64,000 nt of DNA, taken from positions 2,311 to 66,310 of the forward strand of contig CAINLW010000009.1 of NCBI GenBank assembly GCA_903850545.1, in the 5' to 3' direction. The stretch is from an uncultured bacterium. Lineage in GTDB: Bacteria; Patescibacteriota; Minisyncoccia; Phycocordibacterales; GWA1-40-21. The notes beneath the pieces were generated by a model that worked only from the letters and a program-made list of their open reading frames with translations, was not told where the DNA came from and did no database searches. Positions 15,087 through 30,954 of this stretch are shown here, in pieces (positions within the stretch are counted from its first letter, which is position 1; every line of letters begins with the position of its first letter). The position numbers and the translations under genes were made by a program.

Positions 15087-15740
15087 ATGAATGAAAACCA
15101 AATTAATACAGGTCTCTCTTTGTCCGAAATCAAAAAGATTATTATTCATGATACAAACGAACCATTGGTTGAGATTATTGAAAATGAAAAAATAAAACTT
15201 CTAAAAGAACATAAATTTTTATCTCCATATTTGAGAAAATCGGCGAACGATCTGCTTATTGAAGCATCAAGAAACTTACCCGCTACATATAAATTTCTAA
15301 TTGTGACTGCATATCGTCCACTATGGATGCAAAAAATACTTTGGAGAAATAGATTGATACAGATGGCGAAGAAATATCCTTTTAAAATGATTTTTCAATA
15401 TCCTAAATGGAAAAAGATGGCATCTAGATACACAGCTCCTCCTGGTGGATCACCTCATCAATTTGGCGGAGCGGTGGATCTGACAATAATTAACGCCAAG
15501 GGAGAAAAACTTGATATGGGTACAACACTTACCGATTTTGGAGAACGAGTAAGTACTCATAGTAATTTAATTACAGACAAACAAAAAGAAAATCGCAAAA
15601 TTCTTTATGATGCAATGACAAAAGCCGGATTTGTAAATTATCCACTTGAATGGTGGCACTATTCCTATGGAGATAGAACGTGGGCAGCATATACAAAACA
15701 AAAAGAGTGTTTTTATGGGAGAATAGAATCCACTGACTAA
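15087..15740 (+). CDS. D-Ala-D-Ala dipeptidase (VanX-like, peptidase M15D)
   Basis: APPGGSPHQFGGAVDLTI zinc-binding signature. Confidence 0.55.
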   Translation: MNENQINTGLSLSEIKKIIIHDTNEPLVEIIENEKIKLLKEHKFLSPYLRKSANDLLIEASRNLPATYKFLIVTAYRPLWMQKILWRNRLIQMAKKYPFKMIFQYPKWKKMASRYTAPPGGSPHQFGGAVDLTIINAKGEKLDMGTTLTDFGERVSTHSNLITDKQKENRKILYDAMTKAGFVNYPLEWWHYSYGDRTWAAYTKQKECFYGRIESTD

Positions 15741-15757
15741 ACAGATTTTAATGTTCA

Positions 15758-16222
15758 TTGTTTAGATTAAACTATTCAATAATGAGAAATCAAACTATAG
15801 CAAAATTAATAAATAAACTTTATCGAGTATATTGGTTTATCACTCATCCCAAAACAAAAGGTGTTAAAGCCCTTATATTCAACCAAGATAAAATTCTTAT
15901 GGTACGTCTTACATATTATCCAAATACATGGACTTTTCCTGGAGGAGGTGTTAATAAGAAAGAAAATACTATCGATGCAATTATTCGCGAATGTAAGGAA
16001 GAAGTTGGTATTACATTAAAGCATCCGGAATATATTGGAGATCTTCATTTTGAACATGAATATAAAAAAGATACCGTTTCTGTATTTAAAGAAACAATAG
16101 ATGGGCCTGAAATAAAAATTGATGGAAAAGAGGTTGCCGAAGCAAATTGGTATGAGTTAGACAAACTTCCTGTTATGGGTAAGAACGCCAGGACTATACT
16201 TAATATTGTATTAAATAAATGA
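15758..16222 (+). CDS. Nudix hydrolase
   Basis: Canonical Nudix box GGGVNKKENTIDAIIRECKEEVGI (Gx5Ex7REUxEExGU intact). Confidence 0.7.
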   Translation: MFRLNYSIMRNQTIAKLINKLYRVYWFITHPKTKGVKALIFNQDKILMVRLTYYPNTWTFPGGGVNKKENTIDAIIRECKEEVGITLKHPEYIGDLHFEHEYKKDTVSVFKETIDGPEIKIDGKEVAEANWYELDKLPVMGKNARTILNIVLNK

Positions 16223-16234
16223 TAATATAAGAAT

Positions 16235-16558
16235 ATGAAATCAAAAAATGTAAAAATTGTTGTTTTTGTTCCAGAAACTCACTCAGACATAGTTAGAAAA
16301 GCTATGGGAGATGCTGGTGCGGGGAAAATAGGAAATTACAGTCATTGCTCTTTTTCTTCAAAGGGACAAGGAAGATTCTTACCATTGAAAGGATCAAACC
16401 CTTCAATTGGAAAGGTTGGGACATCAGAAGTTGTGGATGAAGAAAGAATAGAGTTTGTTTGTGAAGAGAAAAATCTAAAAAATATTGTTTCTGCAATGAA
16501 AGAATCCCATCCTTATGAAGAGGTAGCTTTTGACATTTATCCACTACTAAATATATAA
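16235..16558 (+). CDS. Nif3/DUF34-like C-terminal domain protein, tentative
   Basis: GAGKIGNYSHCSF..GQGRFLPLKGSNPSIG resembles the C-terminal module of NIF3-family proteins. Confidence 0.3.
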   Translation: MKSKNVKIVVFVPETHSDIVRKAMGDAGAGKIGNYSHCSFSSKGQGRFLPLKGSNPSIGKVGTSEVVDEERIEFVCEEKNLKNIVSAMKESHPYEEVAFDIYPLLNI

Positions 16559-16564
16559 AATAAT

Positions 16565-17119
16565 ATGAAAACCAAGTATATTTTACATGGAGGATTTACT
16601 CCCAAAAACAAAAATGAAAATAATGAGGATTTTTACAAGGAAATTTTAAAGGATGCTCCCGAAGGGGCTAAGATTTTAATAGTTCCATTTGCAAAAGACA
16701 TCGACCGAATTCCTGTTAGTGTCGCAAGAGTTACGGCTGAATTTAATAAAAATAAGTGGCAAGAAAAATTTGATTTTGAAGTAGCAAATGAAGAATCTTT
16801 TATAAAACAAATAGAATCATCCAATGTTATTTATTTCCAAGGTGGAAAAACTTTAAAATTACTTGAGGTTCTTAAAAAGTTTTCTAATTTAAAAAAGATG
16901 TTTGAAGGAAAGATAATTGCTGGTGAATCAGCAGGGGCAAATGTTTTGGGAAAGTTTTTCTATAGTCCAAGCGCTAATGGTGTATTTGAAGGACTGGGTC
17001 TTCTTCCAATTAAAGTCATCCCTCACTATTCTTTAAAATATAGAGATGTATTTAAAGATACGGGATCAGATTTGGACTGCTTGTATCTTAAAGAGTACCA
17101 GTATAAAGTCTTTAAATAA
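16565..17119 (+). CDS. Peptidase S51 / peptidase E-like class-I glutamine amidotransferase-fold protein
   Basis: IYFQGGKTLKLL and IIAGESAGANVLG segments typical of the S51 family. Confidence 0.5.
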   Translation: MKTKYILHGGFTPKNKNENNEDFYKEILKDAPEGAKILIVPFAKDIDRIPVSVARVTAEFNKNKWQEKFDFEVANEESFIKQIESSNVIYFQGGKTLKLLEVLKKFSNLKKMFEGKIIAGESAGANVLGKFFYSPSANGVFEGLGLLPIKVIPHYSLKYRDVFKDTGSDLDCLYLKEYQYKVFK

Positions 17120-17125
17120 AATTAT

Positions 17126-17440
17126 ATGAAAACACTTTTTCAAAAAATCATAAACAAGGAGGAGCCGGCGAAGTTTTTATATGAAGATGACGACTATATT
17201 ATTATTGATAACAAATATCCTAAAGCTCCAATTCATTACCTAATTATTCCTAAAAAACCAATTCATTCTATTTCTGAATCCGTTAATAAAGATAAAGAAA
17301 TCCTAGGAGGACTTTTATTGTTGGCGAGTAGTTTTGCTAAGAAGAAGAAAATCAAAGATTATAAAATAGTTTTTAATTGTGGAAAACATTTACATATTCC
17401 ACATCTACACTTACATTTTCTTGCGGGTGATATAGATTAG
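17126..17440 (+). CDS. HIT-family (histidine triad) nucleotide hydrolase
   Basis: HLHLHF histidine triad at the C-terminus. IIDNKYPKAPIHYLIIPKK. Confidence 0.7.
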   Translation: MKTLFQKIINKEEPAKFLYEDDDYIIIDNKYPKAPIHYLIIPKKPIHSISESVNKDKEILGGLLLLASSFAKKKKIKDYKIVFNCGKHLHIPHLHLHFLAGDID

Positions 17441-18270
17441 TGACTTTTTATTTTCTCCAATTGATTAATAACCATTGTCTTATTATTTTCAAGGACATCT
17501 TTGATATCTTGATATTCCTTATATAATTGGTCGAGTGTAATAACATTCAAATCATAATTAAATTGTATCTGCAGATACTTTTCTTTTGTTATCTCCTTTT
17601 CAAAACTTTTATAAACGAAACCAGAAGCTGGATATAATGTGGTTTTAAAGTTTTTGAAAGCGTAGATTTTAATATTATTAAAAATTTTTAACGAATCAAA
17701 TAACGTCTTATTATATGTATTTGAATTTACAATAAAAACAAAGTATAAATCGTCTTTATGAATTCCTATTTCGCACAAATTAGTTGTTAAGGTAGGAATA
17801 CCAGTTTTTATTAAATTTCCTGAGTCATCAAAATTACCATGAGTTATTAATATATCACTGACAGGATCTCCATTCCTAGCAATCAATTCTCTTAATTTTG
17901 AAAGAAAAATTTTGGTGTCATATGTTTTTATGTTGAGATCCCATGCCACCAGGCCAGATTTTTTTATTTTCGCTTTATAACCAGGATAACTATAATAAAT
18001 CTTTCGTGCATCATCAGCTGAATGAATTGATGGCATGATTTTCTTAAAAGGTATTGCTTTAAACATACTTTCAATAGTTTTAAATTGACGCACTCGCTTT
18101 ACTTCCTTATTTATTCGTTGCTTCCCGCAGACAATAACCAAAACATCTCCCTTTTGGATATTAGTATAACGTATAGTGGCAGCGCGAGTTTCCACCGTTT
18201 TCAATCCATCTTTGATCTCATTAAAATTGTCTTTATCAACTGCACGAAAACGTAATATAATTTTTTTCAT
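17437..18270 (-). CDS. Hypothetical protein, possible ASCH-like N-terminal domain
   Basis: 277 aa. 4-nt overlap with the HIT gene stop. Confidence 0.3.
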   Translation of the reverse strand: MKKIILRFRAVDKDNFNEIKDGLKTVETRAATIRYTNIQKGDVLVIVCGKQRINKEVKRVRQFKTIESMFKAIPFKKIMPSIHSADDARKIYYSYPGYKAKIKKSGLVAWDLNIKTYDTKIFLSKLRELIARNGDPVSDILITHGNFDDSGNLIKTGIPTLTTNLCEIGIHKDDLYFVFIVNSNTYNKTLFDSLKIFNNIKIYAFKNFKTTLYPASGFVYKSFEKEITKEKYLQIQFNYDLNVITLDQLYKEYQDIKDVLENNKTMVINQLEKIKSH

Positions 18271-18303
18271 ATTGGTTACTTTTTATATAGTGTATTTATT
18301 GTT

Positions 18304-18759
18304 TTAATCTGAGATAGATGCAAAAATGCCTCTAAATGATTTACTGAATTCAGCTTGATTAATTTTTATGAGAACATCATTTTTTCCACTTCCGAAGAAC
18401 AGAGAAGGAAGAGAAAGTGTAGAATTATCTGCTATCTGTTTAATCACAGGGTTAATTCCAAAAGGTGACACAGAACCAACACTGTAGCCTGTAAGAGTCA
18501 TTACCTCTGTTGGTTTTGCCATTCGTAATCCTTGCTCTCTCGTAAGAGTTTCAATTTTTGCAATATTTGCTCTTTTGTCTCCAGGTAGGACAACAACAGG
18601 ATTTTTTCCAATGAAAATCAGTGTTTTGATCACCTCTAACGACTCACATTTGCAAGCAATTTGAACATCATGTACTGAATGTACAGCTTGGGTCAAATGG
18701 ATTAATTCAAAATTAATTCCTTTATCTCTTAACTCTTTTATACTGCTTATTTTTTCCAT
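18304..18759 (-). CDS. YbaK/ProX-type aminoacyl-tRNA deacylase
   Basis: GYSVGSVSPFG motif. 151 aa. Confidence 0.5.
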   Translation of the reverse strand: MEKISSIKELRDKGINFELIHLTQAVHSVHDVQIACKCESLEVIKTLIFIGKNPVVVLPGDKRANIAKIETLTREQGLRMAKPTEVMTLTGYSVGSVSPFGINPVIKQIADNSTLSLPSLFFGSGKNDVLIKINQAEFSKSFRGIFASISD

Positions 18760-18900
18760 ATGAATATATTTCTTCTCATTTTACTTATTATGTCCCATGT
18801 ATAAATATATCAGAATATGATTAAAAAATCTTTGTTTTGTTCTGGTTAAAAACATTATTGAAAAATCAGTTTATTCTTAATTAAAATATCTAAAATAAAA

Positions 18901-18934
18901 TTGGGTTCCTATGTCATTCATAGGAACCCAATCT
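18901..18934 (-). terminator. Rho-independent terminator (perfect 13-bp stem) after the DUF1385-like gene
   Basis: ttgggttcctatg-tcattc-ataggaacccaa with an A-rich plus-strand flank (T-run on the minus strand). Confidence 0.6.
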
Positions 18935-18938
18935 GTTG

Positions 18939-19712
18939 TTATGCCAAACTATGATGTTTTGCTACCAGCCGTTCTAGTGCTAACTGTGCAGTCTGCAACT
19001 CGACTTCACCTGGTTCGGTTGTGGTTATCCATTTTTGCAATAACCGGGACATGCCTGATGTTATGGGTATTTTATCCCAGCCTATTAATTTATCTATCCA
19101 CAAAATTGCTTCCATGGATAGTAAATTGACAACTATTGAGTTCACCCCCGAACTTTTGAAGGCGTACTCTGCAATAGTTGTCACTATGATTATAGGCAGG
19201 AATAATCTTCCACCACATTTTTCGTTTACACGGCTCTCTTTCACAATATCCTTCATTCTTACAGACCCAAGACGGTCATATGTGCCGATCGCCTTGTGTT
19301 CTGCACCGTGCCAAGAAGCAACTTCCTGTCGGATATATGTAAAAATGCAAGCATTTATGGTTGCATAAGTGACTAACGAGTCCCACCACCCACTTGATGT
19401 AGGCGCAGAAGCATGATGATGTCCAGGTAGGATGCTTGCTAACATATACAATCCTGCCAAGACTAAACCCCCAAAAACCAAAGTCCTAATTCCTATTTCA
19501 TCAATAAGCATTAGGATTAGTTTGACAGTTTGAGGTATGAAGAACGAACCCTTTTTAGTGATTAGCCGCAGAATAGCCGAATTGCGTTTTACCTCCCACA
19601 GAATACAGTCGGTGAATGGATCGTATTCAGCTGTCGATGTATATTCTTCTGAAAGAATACTTATACTTCTGGATTTGGACATTCCGCCAATAATTCTGAC
19701 TTTTTTCATCAA
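18939..19712 (-). CDS. DUF1385 (YqhQ-like) membrane-associated protein
   Basis: WHGAEHKAIGTYD motif. Hydrophobic segments. Confidence 0.45.
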   Translation of the reverse strand: MMKKVRIIGGMSKSRSISILSEEYTSTAEYDPFTDCILWEVKRNSAILRLITKKGSFFIPQTVKLILMLIDEIGIRTLVFGGLVLAGLYMLASILPGHHHASAPTSSGWWDSLVTYATINACIFTYIRQEVASWHGAEHKAIGTYDRLGSVRMKDIVKESRVNEKCGGRLFLPIIIVTTIAEYAFKSSGVNSIVVNLLSMEAILWIDKLIGWDKIPITSGMSRLLQKWITTTEPGEVELQTAQLALERLVAKHHSLA

Positions 19713-20302: not shown

Positions 20303-20350
20303 TAAAAAAAGTAGCCGCTTCTATTTGTGTAAACAAATAGAAGCGGCTAC
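20303..20350 (-). terminator. Rho-independent terminator (perfect 18-bp stem) after repeat-protein gene A
   Basis: gtagccgcttctatttgt-gtaa-acaaatagaagcggctac preceded on the plus strand by A7. Confidence 0.7.
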
Positions 20351-20365
20351 AATGTTTGTAGATAG

Positions 20366-21181
20366 TTATTTTTCCTCCTTATTATTAATTATTTGGGCCA
20401 TCCTCCTAATGGCATCGCAAGACTCTTGAGAATGATGTTCTGTTTTCTTGAAAACAAATAAACAATCTTTGACGTTTTCAGTAGTGATCAAAGCCTTTTT
20501 AATAGCACTGGACTTAACGATACTTTCATCCGGAGAATCTTTCCACACTTTCATGCATTCCTTGAATGTCGTGGCGACTTCAAGTCTAGACTCGAGTATT
20601 TCGTTTATTTTATGAAGGGCTTTCGCTTGAACAGCGTCACTATATGAATCCCGTAGAACTTCCATGTAATCCCCAAATGTTAAAGCAGTTTCTAGCTTTA
20701 CCTCAAGAAGTTTTTCAATTTTCTCTGACACTTTTAGTTCAATGCAGTTACATATTTGCCGATCATCATCACGATCAATAATCTTTTCACATTCTTTAAT
20801 GGTCGTTGCAAATGTTACAGCTTTTTCCAACAACGCTTTCTGGAAAATACTAACATCACAATCATCAAAGTCCGTGTCGCCATCATCATCACAAAAAATT
20901 AACATATCATAAATCTTCATACACCCCCTGAATGTCGTGGCGTCTTCAACCTCCTTTTTAATAAGCTCCTCAATCTTTTCCTGCGCTTTTTCATAGATAT
21001 TCCTATCAGCAATATCACAATACTTAATTTCCCGACATTCGTTAAGTGTCTTGGCATTTTCGAGTCTCAAGTAAAGATCTGCATGTTTTTTTTCAATGTT
21101 TCCCAATGCCGACTCCGCAAAATATGTTCCGCCGAGGCCTAGAATACTCGCGATTTTTTCCACCAATATTTTTCTGTCCAT
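20366..21181 (-). CDS. Repeat protein, paralog A (~45-aa alpha-helical repeats with A-T-T-F-x-E/G-C-x-K-[IV]-[WY] cores)
   Basis: Internal repeats DATTFRGCMKIYD / ALTFGDYMEVLRDSYSD / VATTFKECMKVWKDSPDE. AAGGAG Shine-Dalgarno 8 nt before ATG(21181). C-terminal CDAIRRMAQIINNKEEK parallels the paralog. Confidence 0.55.
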   Translation of the reverse strand: MDRKILVEKIASILGLGGTYFAESALGNIEKKHADLYLRLENAKTLNECREIKYCDIADRNIYEKAQEKIEELIKKEVEDATTFRGCMKIYDMLIFCDDDGDTDFDDCDVSIFQKALLEKAVTFATTIKECEKIIDRDDDRQICNCIELKVSEKIEKLLEVKLETALTFGDYMEVLRDSYSDAVQAKALHKINEILESRLEVATTFKECMKVWKDSPDESIVKSSAIKKALITTENVKDCLFVFKKTEHHSQESCDAIRRMAQIINNKEEK

Positions 21182-21261
21182 ATACTCGTCTCCTTTAACT
21201 ACAGTTTTTTTAAAGAACTATTTGTTCCAATCAATAATTAAGCATAATCTTTTGAATAAAT

Positions 21262-21288
21262 AAAAAAAGCGAGGATGCCCTCGGTAAA
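21262..21288 (-). promoter_or_regulatory. 27-nt element aaaaaagcgaggatgccctcggtaaaa, copy 1 (weak terminator-like hairpin or shared regulatory site)
   Basis: An identical copy lies at 22335-22361. Each sits ~75-80 nt upstream of a repeat-protein start codon. Confidence 0.4.
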
Positions 21289-21368
21289 ATAGATAATAAA
21301 AATGTCGCACTTGGGATAAAACCAAATGCGACATAAGATCACGTATAACAAATATTCTGCAGAATGAA

Positions 21369-22259
21369 TTATTTTACCTCCTTTCTTTCTATAATCCTTG
21401 CCATCTTTCTGATGACACGACACATTTGTGAACCCCCATCTATAAGTCCATAATTCTTATCCATAAGAATATCTGAGCATTCCTTTGCAGTTCTGGCGAC
21501 ATCAATGGCTCTGTTAGCAATCTTTTTTTGAAGCCATGTGGAATTACTCCCTTCGTCTAAGTCGAGGAGCATATCGTAAAGTTCTTTCATTGAGGCCTTC
21601 AGTAATGCTTTTTTCAAAGACTCACGCTCTATGTAGTCACAATAATCGGGGGAATCTTCATATATCTCCCAGTATTCCTCAGTACTGGTAGCCACCTTAA
21701 GTCTCTGCATGAGAAGTTTTTTTACTTTTTTTCGTGCCTTAAGCTTAATGCGAGGGTCAATACAACCACTAGAAACATCCTCACATTCCCCGACAGTTTT
21801 GGCTGTCTTTAGCTCTCTTCGCATAAGTTTATCCACCATTTCTTTAGCTTTTTGTTTGGTTTTGGTGTTAGCTAAAGGATGATCGCTGATCTCAGAATAC
21901 TCAGAATATCCGAACCAGTCGCCACGACCCTCTTTTGCAATTGTAACAAGTTTTAATTGAAGAAGTTCGTTGAGCTTTTTTCGTGCCATCCTTTTAATGT
22001 CAGTACCTTGGGAATTATAAAGACACTCGCATTCTTTAATTGTTTTTGTGGTCAATATAATTTTATCCAAGATTTTTTGTCTGATATCGCTACCTTTTGG
22101 AGAATATATGTAAACCTTATAGCAATCTCTGGGTGTCGTGGCACATTCGAGTCTCTCTTCTAGTTCGGTAATTGACATCAACCCTAGAGTAAACCTCACG
22201 CTACAAGAACTATTTTCACCGAGAATCTTGACGATTTTTGCCGACGTATCAGTATTCAT
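21369..22259 (-). CDS. Repeat protein, paralog B
   Basis: Start moved to MNTDTSAK (GGAGG Shine-Dalgarno 7 nt upstream; the listed ORF begins 20 codons earlier). Repeats CATTPRDCYKVYIYSPKGSD / VATSTEEYWEIYEDSPDY / VARTAKECSDIL. C-terminal CRVIRKMARIIERKEVK. Confidence 0.55.
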   Translation of the reverse strand: MNTDTSAKIVKILGENSSCSVRFTLGLMSITELEERLECATTPRDCYKVYIYSPKGSDIRQKILDKIILTTKTIKECECLYNSQGTDIKRMARKKLNELLQLKLVTIAKEGRGDWFGYSEYSEISDHPLANTKTKQKAKEMVDKLMRRELKTAKTVGECEDVSSGCIDPRIKLKARKKVKKLLMQRLKVATSTEEYWEIYEDSPDYCDYIERESLKKALLKASMKELYDMLLDLDEGSNSTWLQKKIANRAIDVARTAKECSDILMDKNYGLIDGGSQMCRVIRKMARIIERKEVK

Positions 22260-22334
22260 TTCATTATCCTCCGTTTTAATTTTAAAGACCAATATTTTCT
22301 CCATTCCATGAATAATCATAGTCGTTCTATAAAA

Positions 22335-22361
22335 TTAAAAAAGCGAGGATGCCCTCGGTAA
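22335..22361 (-). promoter_or_regulatory. 27-nt element aaaaaagcgaggatgccctcggtaaaa, copy 2
   Basis: Identical to 21262-21288. Confidence 0.4.
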
Positions 22362-22392
22362 AAATTTTAAAGCTTAATTTTTTTAAACTTAA

Positions 22393-23103
22393 CTAAATGT
22401 CGCTTTGAATATCCTCCCTGAAAAAATATTGAACAGACTTATTTGTTTTCTTTTTAAGATCCTTCAAAACAATTTTTATGCTTTTAATTGAATCAAATTT
22501 AGATGATTCGTTTTTAATTGCAATATTTATTGGCACCCACATATTATGTCCAAAATCTGTATCTTCTATTAATTTTCCTGAATATTTATTCGCGAAGGCA
22601 ATGACAAACAGGACGTCAGAGAAAAGTTCTCCAGATTTATACATAATTCTTCTTTCACATCCAAGAATTTTGAACTTCGCATCAAGTCCAGTTTCTTGCC
22701 TTAATTTTCTGCTAGCAGCATCTTCAAATAATTCTCCTTTAAGTACTACGCCACCCATGACCCCGACTTTTCCATATGAAGGATTAGATTTTCTAATTTG
22801 ATTTAATATTTCTAATTTTCCACCTACAGTTCTTGAAACAATAGTGATAACTTTAACACCAAACAAAGCATCCTCCAATTTGTTGCTTGTGTGGGGATCA
22901 GCTACATATTTCAAACCTTGAGCTGATAGATAGTATTTTGAGTTTTCTTTGGTCAATAACCCCTTTTTTACCAAATGCTGTAAATGATAATTAAATAAGT
23001 CGTTTGGCGTTCCCTGAGGATGCAAATCTGCGTATCTTAAAACATCAGCATTCTTAAGCTTGGAAATAATATAATCTTGGATTGGTGAAAGTTTAGATGT
23101 CAT
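22393..23103 (-). CDS. Winged-helix DNA-binding domain fused to a degenerate Nudix domain (NrtR-like regulator candidate)
   Basis: N-terminal helix-turn-helix-like region. Nudix-box remnant GGVVLKGELFEDAASRKLRQETGLD, in which the REUxEE glutamates are replaced (RKLRQE). Confidence 0.5.
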   Translation of the reverse strand: MTSKLSPIQDYIISKLKNADVLRYADLHPQGTPNDLFNYHLQHLVKKGLLTKENSKYYLSAQGLKYVADPHTSNKLEDALFGVKVITIVSRTVGGKLEILNQIRKSNPSYGKVGVMGGVVLKGELFEDAASRKLRQETGLDAKFKILGCERRIMYKSGELFSDVLFVIAFANKYSGKLIEDTDFGHNMWVPINIAIKNESSKFDSIKSIKIVLKDLKKKTNKSVQYFFREDIQSDI

Positions 23104-23253
23104 GTATTTAAAGAATATACTTTATTTTGAGGAAAATGACAAAGAGTCTGTAGCGTTCTTATTTAATCAAGGTCTGTTTTTAAAGTTACTATTTTGTTTA
23201 TAATTTCTATTAACTGCTTGCTCCACCACAATATTTCATGATACCGTATTAAT

Positions 23254-23922
23254 ATGACAGTGTATGATAAACCACAACCGAAATCAGATGCTCTTGATCA
23301 TATTCGTATAGCAGTAGCCTTGATTCCTACAGAGCCTCTTTTTTCTAATATTATTGAGGCCAGTCAAGCTATAACTCGCCAATTTCAGAATTTTAACATT
23401 ATTGATAAAAATGTTTTTCCTCCTCATGCGTGCCTACATATTTGCACCATATCCAAAGACAAATTGCCACATTTCCTAAAAATAATTAATCAATTGTCCA
23501 ATACAACTTTCCCAATTTTTGATCCATCTATACTAATCAAGGGATCAACGGGCTACATCTCTTTTCAATTAAATATTTCCCCATTGATTCGTTCACTTCA
23601 CGAGAGTGTGTTATCAGCCGCTTTGACTGTTCGGGGAGATGACTATCAGGAAGACCCCGCTCGTTTAGCTCGCCTTTCGGTAGCTGACAGATTGAGCTTT
23701 CAGAAATATGGCAATCGTTTTATCTTCGACAAGTTCAATTTACACATATCCATTGCAAAGGTTGCGCAAGAACATCAAGATGAGGCTTTTGAAATCGCCA
23801 AAACGATCTTAAGCACACCTAAGGCAACGCCCGCAGCTGCTATTCAAGTTTGCGACATCGGAATGCGGAGCGAAAAATGGATCGTTTTATATAGTAAGAA
23901 AATGCAGGGAAAACGTCATTAA
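23254..23922 (+). CDS. 2H-phosphoesterase-like (LigT-like) protein, tentative
   Basis: Two H-x-[ST/C]-x-like motifs about 100 aa apart (PHACLHICTI and NLHISIAKV). GC content above the local average. Confidence 0.3.
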   Translation: MTVYDKPQPKSDALDHIRIAVALIPTEPLFSNIIEASQAITRQFQNFNIIDKNVFPPHACLHICTISKDKLPHFLKIINQLSNTTFPIFDPSILIKGSTGYISFQLNISPLIRSLHESVLSAALTVRGDDYQEDPARLARLSVADRLSFQKYGNRFIFDKFNLHISIAKVAQEHQDEAFEIAKTILSTPKATPAAAIQVCDIGMRSEKWIVLYSKKMQGKRH

Positions 23923-25238
23923 TTTAAATATATAGTTTTATCTTTCAAACTTATTTTACTTTTTAAACATCCCAGTAGTTCTCTCTTTTCTATATCTTTT
24001 CCTTCTCTAAGAATATATTTCGCATAATTTTTAATATCTATATCGGCTATTAGTATTTTTTCATTATTTCCGAGTATCATGTGATTAAATTTTTTGATTT
24101 CTTCAACTTTCGCTTTTATCTTCTCTTTTATTCCAATTTCATCTATATCAATTTTTTCAATTAGGGTTTCAAATTGTTTTATTAGATCTATTTCGTTTAT
24201 ATAACCTCCTTTGCAATTCCTGTCTCTTACCCTGGTACAGCTATAATAGACATGCCTGTGAATATTGCCGTTTTTTTGTTTTTTAAACTTTTCATCTGCT
24301 GTAATTCCAGATCCACAAAGTCCACAAGTCATTAATTTGGTAAAAGCAAATTCCTTACTTTCTGATTTAATAATCTGACTTTTTACTTGATTTTGTACTT
24401 GATCAAACAGTTCTTTGGTAATAAGTGGTTCATGTTTACCCGTATAGAAATTTCCACTTTTTAGTGGATATTCGAAAACTCCATAATAATACGGGTTTCC
24501 TAAAAGTTGATATATATTTCCGAAACTTAATCCTTTGTTACTTTTTACACTTTTGAAATTAATCTCAAACTTCAACCAATTATAGATTTTGTGACCACTC
24601 CATTTCTCATACGCCACCTTTTCAAACATTTTCTTGATTACCGGAGCTCGTTGATGATCAATTACTACGTATCCTTTTCTATCAACCCTTTTTTCGTTCA
24701 AATATCCTACTGGTGGAGGTCCTGGTCTTAATCCCATTTCACATTTAGTTCTTAACCCACGTTTTACATTTACTGATTTATTATCATTTTCTAATTTTGC
24801 TTGAGAACATAAAATCATTAATAAGAACTTTTCGTTTGGTGAATTTATAAATGATTGTCCATAAGTTCTTATTTGTAAAAGTAGTTTCTGATCCATTAAA
24901 TCAACAAGTGATCCAAGATCGCCAGCGTTTCTAGAAAGCCTATCTGGTGCCCAAGTAAGTATTCCGTTAAATCTTTCTTTTCTTATATCTTCAAGTATTT
25001 CTTTAAATATGGGTCTTTGTCCTGAATCTTTAGCTGAATGAGACTCTCTCCTTATATCAATAATCTCAAGTCCTTCTTTTTCAGCCAGTTCAAGCATTTC
25101 TTTTACTTGGGATTCTATAGATAAGATTTGGCGCTCCTCAGATTCTGTACTTTTTCTAGCATATAAACAATATTTAATCTTTGCGGTTGGTATTACAACC
25201 CTTGTACCAATCAAAGCGTTTGTCGCCTGTATTTCCAT
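23919..25238 (-). CDS. Large serine recombinase (resolvase/invertase catalytic domain + recombinase domain + Zn-ribbon)
   Basis: YCLYARKSTESEERQ..SIESQ catalytic-serine region. C-terminal Cys pairs (CGLCGS..CTRVRDRNCKGG). Confidence 0.8.
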   Translation of the reverse strand: MEIQATNALIGTRVVIPTAKIKYCLYARKSTESEERQILSIESQVKEMLELAEKEGLEIIDIRRESHSAKDSGQRPIFKEILEDIRKERFNGILTWAPDRLSRNAGDLGSLVDLMDQKLLLQIRTYGQSFINSPNEKFLLMILCSQAKLENDNKSVNVKRGLRTKCEMGLRPGPPPVGYLNEKRVDRKGYVVIDHQRAPVIKKMFEKVAYEKWSGHKIYNWLKFEINFKSVKSNKGLSFGNIYQLLGNPYYYGVFEYPLKSGNFYTGKHEPLITKELFDQVQNQVKSQIIKSESKEFAFTKLMTCGLCGSGITADEKFKKQKNGNIHRHVYYSCTRVRDRNCKGGYINEIDLIKQFETLIEKIDIDEIGIKEKIKAKVEEIKKFNHMILGNNEKILIADIDIKNYAKYILREGKDIEKRELLGCLKSKISLKDKTIYLN

Positions 25239-25424
25239 GTATTAATGGTGTCAGAGATAGTGTCTTTTGCTAAGCGATAGCTTGTTGGCAACTTTTCTTA
25301 GCAGAATAACTAATTAGCGATATGATCAAGGTAGATTAATAATTTAAAAAGAGTTATTATGTGTAGGACAACTAAATAAGAAGTAGCCTAAACCAGTAGT
25401 AATACTGGCATGGTGAAAGTAAGT

Positions 25425-25510
25425 CCGTTGAAGATAAAAAACCCATCATGTGGGATTTGTCTTCAACGGCCGTATCTGGAAACAGGTATGGAGGGTTCAA
25501 ACCCTCACTC
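25425..25510 (+). other. Structured region upstream of the recombinase: a 10-bp perfect inverted repeat plus a tRNA T-arm-like hairpin; candidate attachment site
   Basis: ccgttgaaga..tcttcaacgg (25425-25469). gaggg-TTCAAAC-ccctc (25491-25506) fits the TPsiC arm consensus, but no complete tRNA could be folded. Confidence 0.3.
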
Positions 25511-25570
25511 ACGTGATGGGCTTTTTGTTTTTCATCACTGGGTTTTAATAACAATTAATAATCTAATGAT

Positions 25571-26206
25571 ATGAAAATTCTCAGAAATATTTTGGGTATA
25601 GGTATCGGTCTTGTTTCTATTGGTTTGTTATTTAGTAAACCAATTTCAGGTATCGTAGGTCTTATTTTTGCAATAAGCTTTTTACCAAAAACGTGGTCTT
25701 ATCTTTCTAAGAAATATAATTTAAATATTCCTAAGCTCTATAAAATATTAATCGTTGTTGTATTACTTTTTGTTTTCTTTAGTCTTTTACCTCAATCAGC
25801 ACCTCAAGTCCAAAATGTTATTAACAATGAAGCTAGTTCAACTACAAATATAATTGATAAAGAAAAAACACAAAGTCTAAATGGTGGTATTAAGTTTAGT
25901 CTTGATAAGGATTACGGATTCGGTGTCATCACTGTTACAAACAAAGATAGCTTTGATTGGAAAGATTGTGTCTTTTCAGTTCCTCTTGCAAAAACTAATC
26001 CTCTTACAATATTAAAAGGAGATTATATGCCTATAACAGCATCTGATTTCTTTAATGATCCTGAGTTTAATAATGGTGGAAAACAAATGACTATGGATGA
26101 TGGCACTTTCAGAAATATAGGAGGTGCTATTAATGTCCAGTGCAGTAATGGTCAAAGCTCAATTGATAATGTTGCTAAAAATTTTAGTAATATAACTGTA
26201 AAATAA
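25571..26206 (+). CDS. Secreted/membrane-anchored hypothetical protein
   Basis: N-terminal hydrophobic segments. Thr/Asn-rich. Confidence 0.4.
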   Translation: MKILRNILGIGIGLVSIGLLFSKPISGIVGLIFAISFLPKTWSYLSKKYNLNIPKLYKILIVVVLLFVFFSLLPQSAPQVQNVINNEASSTTNIIDKEKTQSLNGGIKFSLDKDYGFGVITVTNKDSFDWKDCVFSVPLAKTNPLTILKGDYMPITASDFFNDPEFNNGGKQMTMDDGTFRNIGGAINVQCSNGQSSIDNVAKNFSNITVK

Positions 26207-26210
26207 AATT

Positions 26211-26927
26211 ATGAAAAAAAAGATAATAGTTCTATCTTTCTTTTCACTCCTTATGATAGGGGGTGCTTCAACCGTATTCGCTATTTATGGTATCCAAACA
26301 AAAATAATTAATTGTGTCGCTAACCAAACTTTACAAGACCCTGCTTGCACTCCAGGAGCAGTTTTAACGACGAGTACAACTACAATTTGTAAAACTGGTT
26401 ATACAACAACGGTTCGTGACGTTTCAGTAGCTACCAAAAAGAAAGTTTTTAAGGAATATGGCATTGATTATTCTTTACATTCAAATTATGAAGTTGATCA
26501 TCTAATCAGCCTTGAGCTTGGAGGAAGTAATGATATATCGAATCTTTTTCCCGAGTCATATTTGATTAAAGATAATGCCAGAATAAAAGATAAACTAGAA
26601 AACTATTTGCATAGTAAAGTTTGCAGTGGAAAAATGTCTATCACCGAAGCTCAAAAAGAAATATCAACCAATTGGCTTTATTATTACGATCTTTATTACA
26701 ATGTAAAAGTCGCAACAACTTCAAAAAGCGTTTTACCTGCGACAACTACTTCTATTGTTCCCACCAAATCAATAGCCACATCTTCTACAAATTTTCCCTC
26801 AGTAAAGAAAAGTTTAACTGGTCTTTGCCATGCTTTAGGCACAAGATATTATACTCAGACTTTAAATTACACAGGTTACAATTCGATTGGCGCTTGTTTG
26901 GCAAGTGGAGGAAAATTACCGAAATAA
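26211..26927 (+). CDS. Secreted HNH-family nuclease
   Basis: Signal-peptide-like N-terminus. HNH signature YEVDHLISLELGGSNDISNLFPE. Confidence 0.6.
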   Translation: MKKKIIVLSFFSLLMIGGASTVFAIYGIQTKIINCVANQTLQDPACTPGAVLTTSTTTICKTGYTTTVRDVSVATKKKVFKEYGIDYSLHSNYEVDHLISLELGGSNDISNLFPESYLIKDNARIKDKLENYLHSKVCSGKMSITEAQKEISTNWLYYYDLYYNVKVATTSKSVLPATTTSIVPTKSIATSSTNFPSVKKSLTGLCHALGTRYYTQTLNYTGYNSIGACLASGGKLPK

Positions 26928-26928
26928 A

Positions 26929-28455
26929 TTATCTAAAAAACGGTTTCCAATTTGCTCCAGTAATACCCATAGCTTGGTCAAGATCACTCTCATTAGTATG
27001 ATGATTACTATGATAAATATAACTAATGGATGGTGTACTTTTTGAATCCTCAAACATTTGTAAGATAAGCATTGTCGTGGCGTCAACCAAATCGTCATGC
27101 TTTTCTTTTCCGAAACCCAATATTTGTTCCACTAACTCCTCATTACCTTTATCAGCAAAAACTACACGTCCAAGTTCAATTAAAGCAGAAACAGCCATAA
27201 GTCGATCCTCTTTACTCCAACCTCTTACTGGAAATGGTCTGGCTGGTATTCCCTCAGCCCTTAAGAGATCTGTGATAATTCCTTGGAAGTTTACATCTTC
27301 AACATACACTCGGGAATATGATCCATTATCAGGATTTCGTGAAAGACTTTTAACTCTGCTGATTATTTGGTCAGTAGTTAACCTCGCATTTACTGGATTT
27401 GGTAAAATGTACAATTTTCTATCTTTTCCTGAACCATAGATTTTACCCGAAACCATAGCTGTGTAATCTGCGCCAGCCTTTTGTGATCTTGCAGGGTCAA
27501 TTGAAAGAGCACTGAATCTTAGACTTACTCCAACAGGCAGTTCAGAATAGTGGTGAATATGTTCTCTCTTAATAATCTGATAATCGTTATCGACGATTCT
27601 TAACATATACTCTCTTTGCCAAGTTAGGTCACTAAAACATTTTGATTTTTCATCATCTATATCTTTTTGTGTTTTAAATTTGCCAGGCCAAAGTGGTACA
27701 TTATTTTCATCAATAATTGGAAATTTTCTGAAAACATTTCTTGGATCATTGTTTTGAAAGAATTTTTCCATTCTCATGAGTGTCGAATCGTTGTGCAAGG
27801 GCGTGCCGATGAAAACAAGTTGAGTGTTTCTTTCACCTGCGGGTATGACATCACCTGTTAGCCAGTCATACATTTTATCTCTGTTTTCTTGTGTTCGTAC
27901 TGAATCCGAATCTTCTATATCGTCAGCGATGATCAAGTCTGGTCTATGCTGAAAATGCCTTATACCTCGAATATTTTGCCCAATAGAGCGAGTTGAAATA
28001 TTAGCTCCATATTGAGGAAGAAGAATAGACTGTGTTCCTTCCTGATCGACTTCTTCTTTGAATGGTCCGAAGTCACGTCTAAAGTCATCATTTTCTTCCA
28101 ATTCCTTTTTTATATCGGTAAGGTGTATCTGAGTACTTAGTTGTGTGTGACCTAGAATAAGGATAAACTTTTTCTGCTTTACGCCGACAATTGACCAGAT
28201 GACATACGAAAGAGTGATAATGGTGCTTTTGGCGCTACCCCTAAAAGCGGTAATAACGATATTACGAAGATCAGGATTTTCCGTGAGGTTGAAAATTTCT
28301 CTGTGGAAATCCGCAGTTGGAAATTCTGCATACTTTCTACCGAAGTAATAATGGAAAAACCAATAATGGCTTTTCCTTACCATTGCTAGACGGAATGTTT
28401 TATCTTTAATCATCTGATCGATAATATATTCCTCACTAGGATTTAGGTTGTTCAT
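26929..28455 (-). CDS. Phage terminase large subunit
   Basis: ATPase motif ITAFRGSAKST. Terminase-like length and C-terminal nuclease-like region. Overlaps the upstream small subunit by 20 nt. Confidence 0.75.
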   Translation of the reverse strand: MNNLNPSEEYIIDQMIKDKTFRLAMVRKSHYWFFHYYFGRKYAEFPTADFHREIFNLTENPDLRNIVITAFRGSAKSTIITLSYVIWSIVGVKQKKFILILGHTQLSTQIHLTDIKKELEENDDFRRDFGPFKEEVDQEGTQSILLPQYGANISTRSIGQNIRGIRHFQHRPDLIIADDIEDSDSVRTQENRDKMYDWLTGDVIPAGERNTQLVFIGTPLHNDSTLMRMEKFFQNNDPRNVFRKFPIIDENNVPLWPGKFKTQKDIDDEKSKCFSDLTWQREYMLRIVDNDYQIIKREHIHHYSELPVGVSLRFSALSIDPARSQKAGADYTAMVSGKIYGSGKDRKLYILPNPVNARLTTDQIISRVKSLSRNPDNGSYSRVYVEDVNFQGIITDLLRAEGIPARPFPVRGWSKEDRLMAVSALIELGRVVFADKGNEELVEQILGFGKEKHDDLVDATTMLILQMFEDSKSTPSISYIYHSNHHTNESDLDQAMGITGANWKPFFR

Positions 28456-28846
28456 TTGAGTTTTGATTATTATTTGGTAATGCTAGACGGAGGGCTTCAC
28501 GAAGTAATTTTTCTTGCTCTGGATCGAGGATTTCTTTTTCGTTTTTTATCGTTCCTACTATCTCAACCTTTTCTTTGAATTTTGGATTTCGATGCCTTAA
28601 CCAAAAAGAAAGGGCATTCCAATTTTTTTCTTTTATAAGTGTGAGCAGTTGGCTTTCGGAAATGTCATTGATTAAGGCTTCACCGTCGGCTAATGCTTCT
28701 TCCATATCTTTTGCAAATTCCTTATCTGTATTTTTCCACCTATACAAGCTGACTCTAGATATTGCTACTTTTTCACAGGCAACCTCAATAATCGGAATTT
28801 TTCTTAACTCTACCAGAAACTGATTTTTTACTTTATTCTTTTTCAT
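28436..28846 (-). CDS. Phage terminase small subunit-like helix-turn-helix protein
   Basis: ISRVSLYRWKN helix-turn-helix. Position immediately upstream of the terminase large subunit. Confidence 0.45.
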   Translation of the reverse strand: MKKNKVKNQFLVELRKIPIIEVACEKVAISRVSLYRWKNTDKEFAKDMEEALADGEALINDISESQLLTLIKEKNWNALSFWLRHRNPKFKEKVEIVGTIKNEKEILDPEQEKLLREALRLALPNNNQNSNEQPKS

Positions 28847-30122
28847 AGTAGTTGTGAATTATTTTTGCTTGTTTTCCTGTGAGTTTTAAAAATCTTCTTA
28901 TGGCTAAGTCGATATATATTGGCTGAAGCTCTAGACCATAAACTTTTCTTCTGAGTTGCTCTGCCGAAATTAATGAGCTTGCGGACCCGAGGAAGCTATC
29001 TAATATAATATCTCCGACCTTTGTACATCTTCTGATAATTTTTGAATATAAATTCGTTGGTTTGGAAGTTGCATGTTCCATTTCTTTGCCAGATAATCTT
29101 CTAACCGCCCAGACGTTGAGACAATCAAGGACTTGATCAAACATATCGTTTCCAGTCGTCATGTCCCCATTCATTACCTCATTGAGATTTTGAATGTTTG
29201 GAGCGATATATGGATGACCTCGAAGCCCGTAGGTACAAGGTTCATAGCACTTTGAAAAAGCAATACCTGGGGTCGGGTTTTGTGACTGCTTCAACCATAG
29301 ACACACTCTTTTGTTTTGTATTCCAAAACTTCTATATAATTCTTGTATAAAACCAATATAGATTTGGTCTGAAAAATAAAAGAAATTAACATCATACTTA
29401 GATACAGATAATGCTCCTGCCATGCTTTTTCTAAGGAATTCTTTATATTCAGTGTCGGTTCTATTATCGAGGACTTCACCGCCATAATTTTTTGATCCAC
29501 CTAATCCAGATTTGTAGTTATAATTTATATTGTAGATTGGATCTGAACATACCATTGACGCTTTTTCTTTTCCGAAAAGTTTTTTAACAGCCTCAGCATC
29601 CGTGCTATCTGCACACAAAATTTTATGATCTCCTAATATGACGAGATCACCAAGTTTTGTTTGTGGAATTTTAATTTTGGCTAACTCAATTTTTTCGTCA
29701 AAGTTATCATCCTCAGTTTTTAACTCATCTCCCCAAACTTTTGAAAGATCTATATCACTTAAACCAATGTCAGACAGCAAATCCATCTTAAAATCTTTTA
29801 ATTTTTCAAAATTCCATTGCCCATCATTTAAATTACTTTCGAGACCAATTTTTCTTCTTTCGTCTTCAGAAAGTTTGCGACTTGGGACAAGCACATTAAC
29901 CTCTTTTATCTTTAATTTCATAAGCGCAACCTTCCTTTGGTTGCCAGATAAAATTGTGTTATCTGCATCAATAACAATTACAGCATGAAAACCATGCTGT
30001 TTAATTCTATCCACTAGTCTAGCCATGTCCGGTTTTGTAATCCTGCGAGGATTCGCTTTCCAAACGACTAGTTCTTCGACCTTCCTAACTTCTGCGTGCC
30101 AAACTAATTTTTGTTGAGACAT
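28833..30122 (-). CDS. ParB-like nuclease domain fused to a DNA methyltransferase (N4/N6 type)
   Basis: N-terminal ParB-like region. SDPIYN (DPPY-like) and ILDSFLGSASS (SAM-binding) motifs. Confidence 0.65.
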   Translation of the reverse strand: MSQQKLVWHAEVRKVEELVVWKANPRRITKPDMARLVDRIKQHGFHAVIVIDADNTILSGNQRKVALMKLKIKEVNVLVPSRKLSEDERRKIGLESNLNDGQWNFEKLKDFKMDLLSDIGLSDIDLSKVWGDELKTEDDNFDEKIELAKIKIPQTKLGDLVILGDHKILCADSTDAEAVKKLFGKEKASMVCSDPIYNINYNYKSGLGGSKNYGGEVLDNRTDTEYKEFLRKSMAGALSVSKYDVNFFYFSDQIYIGFIQELYRSFGIQNKRVCLWLKQSQNPTPGIAFSKCYEPCTYGLRGHPYIAPNIQNLNEVMNGDMTTGNDMFDQVLDCLNVWAVRRLSGKEMEHATSKPTNLYSKIIRRCTKVGDIILDSFLGSASSLISAEQLRRKVYGLELQPIYIDLAIRRFLKLTGKQAKIIHNYYEKE

Positions 30123-30216
30123 AAATTTTATTTATGATTAATTAATAAAGTCGTGATTTCTCACGACCCTATTAAACACCATAAAAATAAATAGTTTGGA
30201 AAAAATTGGTCCAGAA

Positions 30217-30954
30217 TTATCCAAAAAGCTTCTTACGCATTTTATCTAAACTTCTTTTAGCATCATATACTTGTTGTGATTTTTTTCTGGATCCAAAATG
30301 TTCCTCGGCGAGGTCTCTCGCTGTTATTTTTTCGGTATATTTTTCTCTATCTTTTTGCCAATTCTCAAACGTAAGCCGTTTAATTGTAGCCTTTGTTATT
30401 TTGTTGATTTTTGGAAAATCCTTCGTCCTTTCTTTAATTAAACGCAGTAAGGATAACTGTTCATTTTTTGTAAGCCTAGAATATATTTCTATTTTTGCTA
30501 CGCGTTCTGTTTTTATATCCCATAGGTATGAAAAATTATCAGTAGGTATAAAATCAAATTTATTGTGAAGGATATATCGTCTTATAACACTGACAAGGTG
30601 AGAAGGTAAATTAAAATTATCTATAACATAATTACTAGCGTCAGTTAGAATATTTGCATGAAGATTTTCTCTGAGGAGTAGATTTAGTTGTTTATTTGCC
30701 ATATTTCGATCTAATTCACCAGATTTCATTTTTTCTCTTAGATACTGATTGTGTCTTTTGTAGTTTTTCGAGTTCAGATATTCACGATCTTTTTCCTCCC
30801 AATAATTTATCCATCTTTCGACTTCTTCATTTTTTGAAAAACCTGATTCAGGTATCTTTAAAAGAATCCGTATTGATTTTATGTAAACCTGAAACTTATC
30901 ATGACCGATTAATAGAGTTAGAAGTTGGACGTTGTTAGATTTGTTAATCATCAT
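30217..30954 (-). CDS. Hypothetical protein (first gene of the packaging-module transcription unit)
   Basis: 245-aa basic protein. No motif recognised. Confidence 0.35.
   Translation of the reverse strand: MMINKSNNVQLLTLLIGHDKFQVYIKSIRILLKIPESGFSKNEEVERWINYWEEKDREYLNSKNYKRHNQYLREKMKSGELDRNMANKQLNLLLRENLHANILTDASNYVIDNFNLPSHLVSVIRRYILHNKFDFIPTDNFSYLWDIKTERVAKIEIYSRLTKNEQLSLLRLIKERTKDFPKINKITKATIKRLTFENWQKDREKYTEKITARDLAEEHFGSRKKSQQVYDAKRSLDKMRKKLFG

Follow-up and report, generated by a model that had tools for sequence, protein, structure and literature searches.

Transcription factors that use a Nudix domain as their sensor are already known as a kind. The NrtR and AraR families were both found by comparative genomics (PMC2330246, PMC4666351), with the same logic as that followed here, and further Nudix- or WYL-sensor transcription factors, predicted to be repressors, occur beside ADP-ribosylglycohydrolase conflict systems in defence contexts (PMC9503650). 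In enterobacterial NadR, a helix-turn-helix at the N-terminus is fused to a nicotinamide mononucleotide (NMN) adenylyltransferase/ribosylnicotinamide kinase, and the operator is an 18-bp palindrome (summarised in PMC2330246). Here we analyzed a 64-kb stretch of DNA from an uncultured patescibacterium (contig CAINLW010000009.1, assembly GCA_903850545.1; the whole stretch is called the window), which carries on its minus strand a gene for a winged helix-turn-helix (wHTH)-Nudix protein followed by two copies of a conserved palindromic element. The best explanation of the sequence data, and one that we consider fairly probable, is a one-component nucleotide-sensing regulator acting on a conserved promoter element.

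Gene regulation in the Patescibacteria, or Candidate Phyla Radiation (CPR), is almost unexplored because the organisms are mostly uncultured, and a search of a literature collection found no paper tying Nudix-type regulators to Patescibacteria/CPR. The family presented here is undescribed, even though the kind of regulator is not. Like Shewanella NrtR (3GZ5/3GZ8) and Bacteroides AraR (5BS6), it has a one-component makeup, with a perturbed-signature Nudix effector module fused to a winged helix, and as in those families a palindromic candidate operator adjoins the regulator gene. It differs from both in its reversed domains, its other type of wHTH, an operator of another sequence at about -42 of a promoter that has no -35, the lack of a link to nicotinamide adenine dinucleotide (NAD) or arabinose genes in its loci (about 8 kb was examined around each homologue), and its occurrence in Patescibacteria. 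The N-terminal position of a DNA-binding domain on a nucleotide-metabolizing fold is shared with NadR, in which the fold senses a nucleotide co-regulator; unlike the family here, NadR has another sensor fold, keeps its enzymatic activities and represses NAD genes. The regulators of the ADP-ribosylglycohydrolase conflict systems are likewise small-molecule-sensing one-component factors beside variable effector genes, whereas the commonest downstream gene in our loci is a metabolic-looking oxygenase.

Domain architecture and the degenerate Nudix box

The regulator gene and its parts are as follows.
22393–23103, minus strand: wHTH-Nudix regulator, an open reading frame (ORF) of 236 amino acids (aa), from the ORF list and its translation; stop codon at 22393–22395.
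22894–23103, minus strand: N-terminal winged-helix DNA-binding domain, aa 1–70.
22966–23004, minus strand: recognition helix, aa 34–46.
22396–22866, minus strand: C-terminal Nudix-fold domain, aa 80–236.
22684–22752, minus strand: degenerate Nudix box, aa 118–140.

A preliminary description of positions 22393–23103 had recognised a Nudix box here, and the 236-aa protein of this real minus-strand ORF does have the Nudix fold: Pfam NUDIX (PF00293) matched aa 96–195 (E 7.5e-8; 32.9 bits against a cut-off of 21.1 bits). Mapping of the box string, GGVVLKGELFEDAASRKLRQETGLD at aa 117–141, on the signature GX5EX7REUXEEXGU assigned G118, E124, R132, K133, L134, R135, Q136, E137, T138, G139, and L140. 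RKLRQE stands where REUxEE is expected; of its three glutamates, two have given way to K133 and Q136, as had been stated, and the third, E137, is retained. The intact catalytic signature is absent from the box, and the 236-aa protein contains no second, intact one elsewhere.

Conservation of the box was followed across 84 homologous loci. The first glycine (G1) and E7 were present in 84/84 and R15 in 83/84, and the third glutamate of REUxEE was kept in 83/84. K takes the place of the first glutamate in 82 and R in the other 2, which makes the E-to-K change a hallmark of the family and no chance feature of the window copy; the second is Q in 41, E in 17, I in 8, V in 7, and D in 3. The Nudix domain is also rich in invariant basic or polar residues (R91, R104, K112, K122, R132, K133, R151, R152, H186, and N187).

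The N-terminal domain is a winged helix-turn-helix of the MarR/ArsR type, as disclosed by fold comparison; sequence models did not resolve it, with HTH_45, DUF7347, and Sso10a all below their cut-offs and no significant match of the wHTH profile to PDB sequences. Unlike MarR/HxlR/ArsR regulators, for which the Pfam models stayed below threshold, this domain of about 70 aa has no MarR-type dimerisation helices, and dimerisation, if any, would come from the Nudix domain. Even orthologues that are only 36–41% identical overall (labelled Dojkabacteria or Patescibacteria group) share the invariant recognition helix, NDL[FY]NYHLQxLVK, and they retain the palindromic motif as well.

A word-indexed search returned more than 650 homologues, nearly all of 235–245 aa and with 60–70% identity over the full length. 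Those with names came from Patescibacteria, Parcubacteria or Paceibacterota metagenome-assembled genomes (MAGs) and were annotated 'NUDIX hydrolase' or 'MutT', labels that probably misname the function of many database entries. In an exhaustive profile search of 1.84 billion representatives, 1032 clusters reached E ≤ 1e-3 and 515 reached E ≤ 1e-10, and the two domains were present together in nearly all. The family amounts to about 500 clusters at 50% identity, and all placed members are Patescibacteria.

Distant relatives with 24–28% identity have the same architecture, and P0233, P0243, P0251, P0263, P0266, and P0270 among them carry an intact REUxEE. P0266 (L113 4001–4711, GCA_038230075.1) is a distant wHTH-Nudix paralog from the same Paceibacteria MAG as the canonical member L068; its box, RELMEE, is intact, its recognition helix differs, and the TACCGAGG motif is missing from its vicinity. 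Because these two share one MAG, the distant relatives are paralogous subfamilies. The ancestor of the wHTH-Nudix proteins was probably catalytic, and P0266 suggests a wider superfamily with differing specificities. Separately, a 412-aa record, P0069, on the contig of L032 joins the wHTH-Nudix sequence to a PemK/MazF toxin domain (PF02452), either as a genuine fusion or through an artefact of gene calling.

An active Nudix enzyme with non-canonical chemistry, targeted to DNA or RNA by the wHTH or bifunctional like NadR or NuhA, is an alternative to which we give little likelihood. Conservation of G118, E124, R132, E137, and G139 across the family would suit such an enzyme, as would the intact boxes of the distant relatives, and some NrtR members with an intact box are active (PMC2330246). 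Against this, the first glutamate is K or R in all 84 homologues, most of which have Q, I or V as the second, and a perturbed signature in NrtR-type proteins goes with an activity loss of several hundred-fold (PMC2330246). The tight link to a promoter element, described below, argues for regulation as the main role. Loss of hydrolase activity is a prediction.

The preliminary description had also called the protein NrtR-like. Its ligand-sensing role fits the evidence, and the reverse of the NrtR domain order, with the DNA-binding region N-terminal and the degenerate Nudix domain C-terminal, was correctly seen. Membership of the NrtR family was rejected, since domain order, wHTH type, operator, and gene context all differ. 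That the protein is nevertheless a true NrtR-family regulator with permuted domains, sensing ADP-ribose and controlling NAD metabolism, seems extremely improbable to us. Its best PDB sequence match is indeed the NrtR-family AraR from Bacteroides (E 1.6e-4), there are weak NCBIfam matches to NadM-Nudix, and the perturbed signature is of the NrtR kind. However, NrtR has an N-terminal Nudix domain and a C-terminal wHTH, whereas here the wHTH occupies aa 1–70 and Nudix aa 80–236; the wHTH belongs to the MarR/ArsR type; and the Nudix fold appears at least as close to MutT as to NrtR. The operator bears no relation to NrtR boxes, NAD genes clustered with the regulator in none of the loci examined, and the neighbours are instead 2-oxoglutarate (2OG) oxygenase, HD, HIT, CYTH, and unknown proteins. 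No observation singles out ADP-ribose as the ligand. Most simply, the family is a fusion independent of NrtR, and an inactivated Nudix fold seems to have been recruited here, independently and for a second time, as the sensor domain of a transcription factor. The protein probably works like NrtR, as a nucleotide-sensing one-component regulator.

A conserved palindrome in a probable promoter setting

The spacer between the regulator gene and the oxygenase gene that commonly follows it holds the conserved sequence TTTACCGAGGAnnTCCTCGCTTTTTT. Its core, TACCGAGG-N4-CCTCGCT(A/T), is an imperfect palindrome of 18–20 bp with a 7-4-7 repeat, in which the half-site centres lie about 11 bp apart and the 4-nucleotide (nt) centre is free to vary. 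In the window the element takes the following form.
22337–22363, minus strand: first copy of the 27-mer, TTTTACCGAGGGCATCCTCGCTTTTTT, about 30 nt past the regulator stop; core palindrome 22342–22360.
21263–21289, minus strand: second, identical copy of the 27-mer; core palindrome 21268–21286.
22315–22320, minus strand: -10-like hexamer TATGAT at motif positions 41–46, the putative promoter of repeat-protein gene 1.
21241–21246, minus strand: -10-like hexamer TATGCT at motif positions 41–46, the putative promoter of repeat-protein gene 2.

No copies besides these two were found in the window; both lie on the strand of the regulator, and each precedes one of two repeat-protein paralogs. To evaluate the association across the family, we allowed at most 2 mismatches in the 14 specified bases and used 77 species-representative genomes with enough downstream sequence. 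The motif occurred within 300 nt after the stop codon in 63/77 genomes and within 4 kb downstream in 71/77, where shuffling expects 1.1; upstream of or inside the regulator gene there were 6 hits in 319 kb. The regulator's own upstream regions contained no motif and only ordinary promoters, and autoregulation through it was rejected. As an unbiased test in the reverse direction, 241 million metagenome records were scanned for the exact 20-base motif; of the 23 hits, 19 were Patescibacteria-type loci, with the regulator upstream in 16, only the oxygenase downstream in 2 and a contig-end duplicate of a regulator locus in 1. Oxygenase or HD genes that lie apart from the regulator still have the motif before them (L015, L058, L047, and L094). 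The 27-mer, which had been suggested as a shared operator, is thus one instance of a family-wide, promoter-linked palindrome that accompanies the regulator gene.

Matches elsewhere had the character of coincidence. The remaining four of the 23 exact hits were in-frame coincidences in GC-rich organisms. An exact 22-nt motif was likewise seen by chance in HIT-family coding sequences of GC-rich organisms (L093 482–503 and L097 2365–2386), where it encodes RTEDLLAFRD, which shows that hits of short motifs have to be judged by their surroundings. In viral contigs, the 14-base core gave more than 120 hits, none with the extended flanks, the regulator or the oxygenase, and these were set aside as chance matches.

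Adjacency by its nature is only correlative, and another transcription factor or a sigma factor might recognise the element while the wHTH-Nudix gene is merely a conserved upstream neighbour; such a non-symmetric binder could account for the palindrome's conserved asymmetry and for the missing -35. We find this distinctly improbable. The only constant partner of the motif is the regulator gene, whereas downstream genes vary; neither the recognition helix nor the motif changes across deep lineages; and the paralogous subfamily in the same genome, with its different helix, has no such motif. These observations suggest that the regulator itself likely binds the element.

The position of the motif relative to a core promoter is also fixed. 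In 87 of 102 non-redundant instances, motif position 41, 42 or 43 is the first base of a TAnnnT hexamer, compared with about 2 per position elsewhere, and about 50–57 nt separate the motif from the start codon, whichever gene family lies downstream. The -35 position (motif positions 18–23) reads CTTTTT and offers no -35 hexamer, in contrast to the regulator's own promoter in the window, which has a good TTGTCA-17-TATATT. With the -10 box at 41–46, the inferred start of transcription falls about 42 bp downstream of the palindrome centre. The element combines an inverted repeat, fixed phasing to a core promoter and co-occurrence with the regulator gene, as an operator within a promoter does.

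The palindrome could alternatively act at the RNA level, as a terminator, attenuator or 3'-end stability hairpin, with the protein unrelated to it or RNA-binding, although we regard this as unlikely. At most Paceibacteria-type loci a T run follows the palindrome, and the resulting 5-bp G+C-rich hairpin with its T run is detected by a terminator scan; moreover, 80/81 motif copies lie on the strand of the regulator gene, and a few variants maintain pairing through G-U-compatible (T-G in 4) or double (T-A in 2) changes. In many lineages, distant ones among them, however, CTCTAGA or CTAT replaces the T run, while the palindrome, its TACC/GCT flanks and the recognition helix persist. The hairpin has only 5 bp and a fold energy of about -7 kcal/mol (z -0.6 to -1.9), compared with stems of 13–18 bp in the clear terminators of the window, and the second copy directly follows one such separate, strong terminator, a position that, like the rigid -10 spacing, suits a promoter element. 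About a quarter of the instances have a broken outer pair (C-T or C-A), and the inner pair varies freely. In a covariation test, the four core pairs never varied and the variable pairs lacked consistent compensation. What is conserved across lineages with saturated synonymous sites is sequence, not structure. An Rfam search of the region at permissive E-values returned sub-threshold chance hits only.

We argue that the element is primarily a DNA-level promoter element, because the T run is replaceable, the stem has only 5 bp, compensation is inconsistent and the -10 spacing is fixed. The same is indicated by the motif staying with its downstream gene and by the duplicated unit of the window, which consists of motif, -10, 5' untranslated region (UTR), and gene.

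Downstream genes and the module in the window

On five long contigs, a 2OG-Fe(II) oxygenase of about 276 aa is encoded 75–125 bp downstream of the regulator on the same strand. It was present in 44 of about 84 non-redundant loci and immediately downstream in 41, which makes it, and not the window neighbours named in the preliminary description, the conserved partner of the family elsewhere. HIT, CYTH-like, and YfbR-like HD proteins are other recurrent neighbours. Compared with the PDB, the oxygenase profile matched two uncharacterised structures first; its best characterised hits came next and were thymine dioxygenase (nearly full length, E 1e-8) and AdaV, a dAMP halogenase. From these weak similarities, the downstream families suggest a (deoxy)nucleotide or nucleobase-salvage theme. 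Near one homologue (L001 2022–6593), we also observed a DNA polymerase III alpha subunit gene that bears an intein with a LAGLIDADG endonuclease (PF14890, PF14528).

No oxygenase was found by tblastn across the 64-kb window. The closest relatives of the window locus are also without it; a 316-aa repeat protein stands in its place in the window, whose organism has swapped the gene downstream of the regulator. The module there comprises, besides the elements given above, these features.
23114–23142, minus strand: the regulator's own sigma-70-like promoter, TTGTCA-17-TATATT, a consensus match only (consensus scan, 10/12 matches).
21369–22259, minus strand: repeat-protein gene 1 (rep316), a predicted target; probable start ATG 22259 (M21), longest ORF from 22319.
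21302–21334, minus strand: terminator-like hairpin that ends repeat gene 1, a 13-bp stem and T run (region -27 kcal/mol, z = -5.8).
20366–21181, minus strand: repeat-protein gene 2 (rep271), paralogous to gene 1; second predicted target.
20311–20350, minus strand: strong, bidirectional terminator-like hairpin with an 18-bp stem, which closes the module.
23254–23922, plus strand: 2H-phosphoesterase-like gene (222 aa), divergent from the regulator.

The regulator promoter ends 11 nt 5' of the ATG, and the predicted mRNA is almost leaderless. The repeat proteins are paralogs (BLASTP, 33–37% identity, E 2e-10), both helical-repeat with a recurring unit of about 35–40 aa, ..A(T/K)T..EC..(V/I).., and homology between their upstream regions runs from the motif across the 5' UTR. 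The true start of gene 1 is probably ATG 22259, 60 nt downstream of the longest-ORF start, because GGAGGA precedes it, the database version has 296 aa and the starts of both paralogs then lie 101–105 nt from the motif start; the longest-ORF start (22319) falls inside the -10 box. The hairpin at 21302–21334 is located just upstream of motif copy 2. No homologues of the repeat proteins were found outside this lineage in 5.8 billion clusters, and Pfam, NCBIfam, and PHROGs gave nothing credible for them. In the window, the two genes are likely the targets of the regulator.

The small module proposed earlier probably holds for the repeat paralogs, each of which carries one 27-mer; the 2H-phosphoesterase-like gene, which had been included in it, has no copy and is not a conserved neighbour of the regulator, so that there is no reason to count it in. 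Its identification was sound: homologues carry PF13563/PF06299, and H58-x-S/T and H164-x-S are conserved. In the first of these motifs the window copy has Cys (H-A-C-L), a position at which Ser prevails among the homologues.

About 800 bp from the regulator gene begins a prophage or integrated element, at 23919–30954 and probably further, with the following genes.
23919–25238: serine integrase (phrog_95, E 7e-59).
26929–28455: large terminase (phrog_38, E 1e-81).
28436–28846: small terminase.
28833–30122: ParB-like/DNA methyltransferase fusion.

A cluster of small nucleotide- or peptide-handling genes lies a few kb from the regulator on its other side, at 15087–19712; none of its genes, listed here with their Pfam annotations, is preceded by the motif.
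15087–15740: VanY.
15758–16222: NUDIX.
16565–17119: Peptidase_S51.
17126–17440: HIT/DcpS_C.
18304–18759: tRNA_edit.
18939–19712: DUF1385.

Proposed mode of action and its meaning

The two folds, the degenerate box, the gene-motif association and the spacing between motif and -10 are observations; binding of this motif by the protein, the absence of hydrolysis, a nucleotide as ligand and the direction of regulation are inferred. In the mechanism that we favour, the N-terminal MarR/ArsR-like winged helix, presumably dimeric, would bind the 18–20-bp palindrome just downstream of the regulator gene, while the Nudix domain, which has lost the first and usually the second metal-binding glutamate, would sense a phosphorylated, nucleotide-type ligand. 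The ligand would then switch DNA binding or the recruitment of RNA polymerase. The palindrome would be part of a portable promoter cassette with a -10 and without a -35 that drives a variable downstream gene, mostly the thymine-dioxygenase-related 2OG-Fe(II) oxygenase, otherwise YfbR-like HD, HIT, CYTH or unknown proteins. In the window, the cassette would drive two orphan helical-repeat paralogs, each behind its own copy.

Class II promoters have CRP/FNR sites centred near -41.5. The palindrome, about 42 bp upstream of the inferred start, would similarly take the place of the missing -35, although the protein family is unrelated to CRP/FNR, the start is placed by sequence and activation is a proposal. 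The geometry resembles that of class II activator-dependent promoters, which tips the balance slightly towards activation from a class-II-like position and away from repression through occlusion of the -35 region.

Several points weigh against this mechanism. MarR/ArsR-like proteins and NrtR are mostly repressors, which speaks against the activator version. The transcription start is derived from a -10-like hexamer. The palindrome has a strictly conserved asymmetry, with C at both position 3 and position 18, that a symmetric dimer does not explain, and the motif logo was built from pattern matches, which biases its core positions by ascertainment, though not the flanks or the -10 signal. The 27-mer of the window fits the minimal pattern of an intrinsic terminator (5-bp stem, T6-7), and the pairing-preserving variants described above point the same way, so that an RNA-level role keeps a small probability. 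Finally, the retained E124, R132, and E137 make residual or unconventional catalysis possible.

The family provides a widespread regulator, a precisely defined candidate operator and promoter architecture, and a candidate regulon with a nucleotide-metabolism theme, all of them accessible to in vitro tests that need just a single purified protein and an oligonucleotide of 27 bp. A further, rather doubtful reading would make the MutT-like fold a sensor of a (deoxy)nucleotide, or of a damaged or non-canonical nucleotide, that activates the cassette from a class-II-like site for salvage and clean-up enzymes across Patescibacteria, namely the thymine-dioxygenase-like oxygenase, the YfbR-like deoxynucleoside monophosphate (dNMP) nucleotidase, HIT, and CYTH proteins, with lineage-specific orphans in some lineages. 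If true, this would be a central nucleotide-scavenging circuit in organisms incapable of de novo nucleotide synthesis, and the CPR would have its first defined transcription factor-operator-effector triad.
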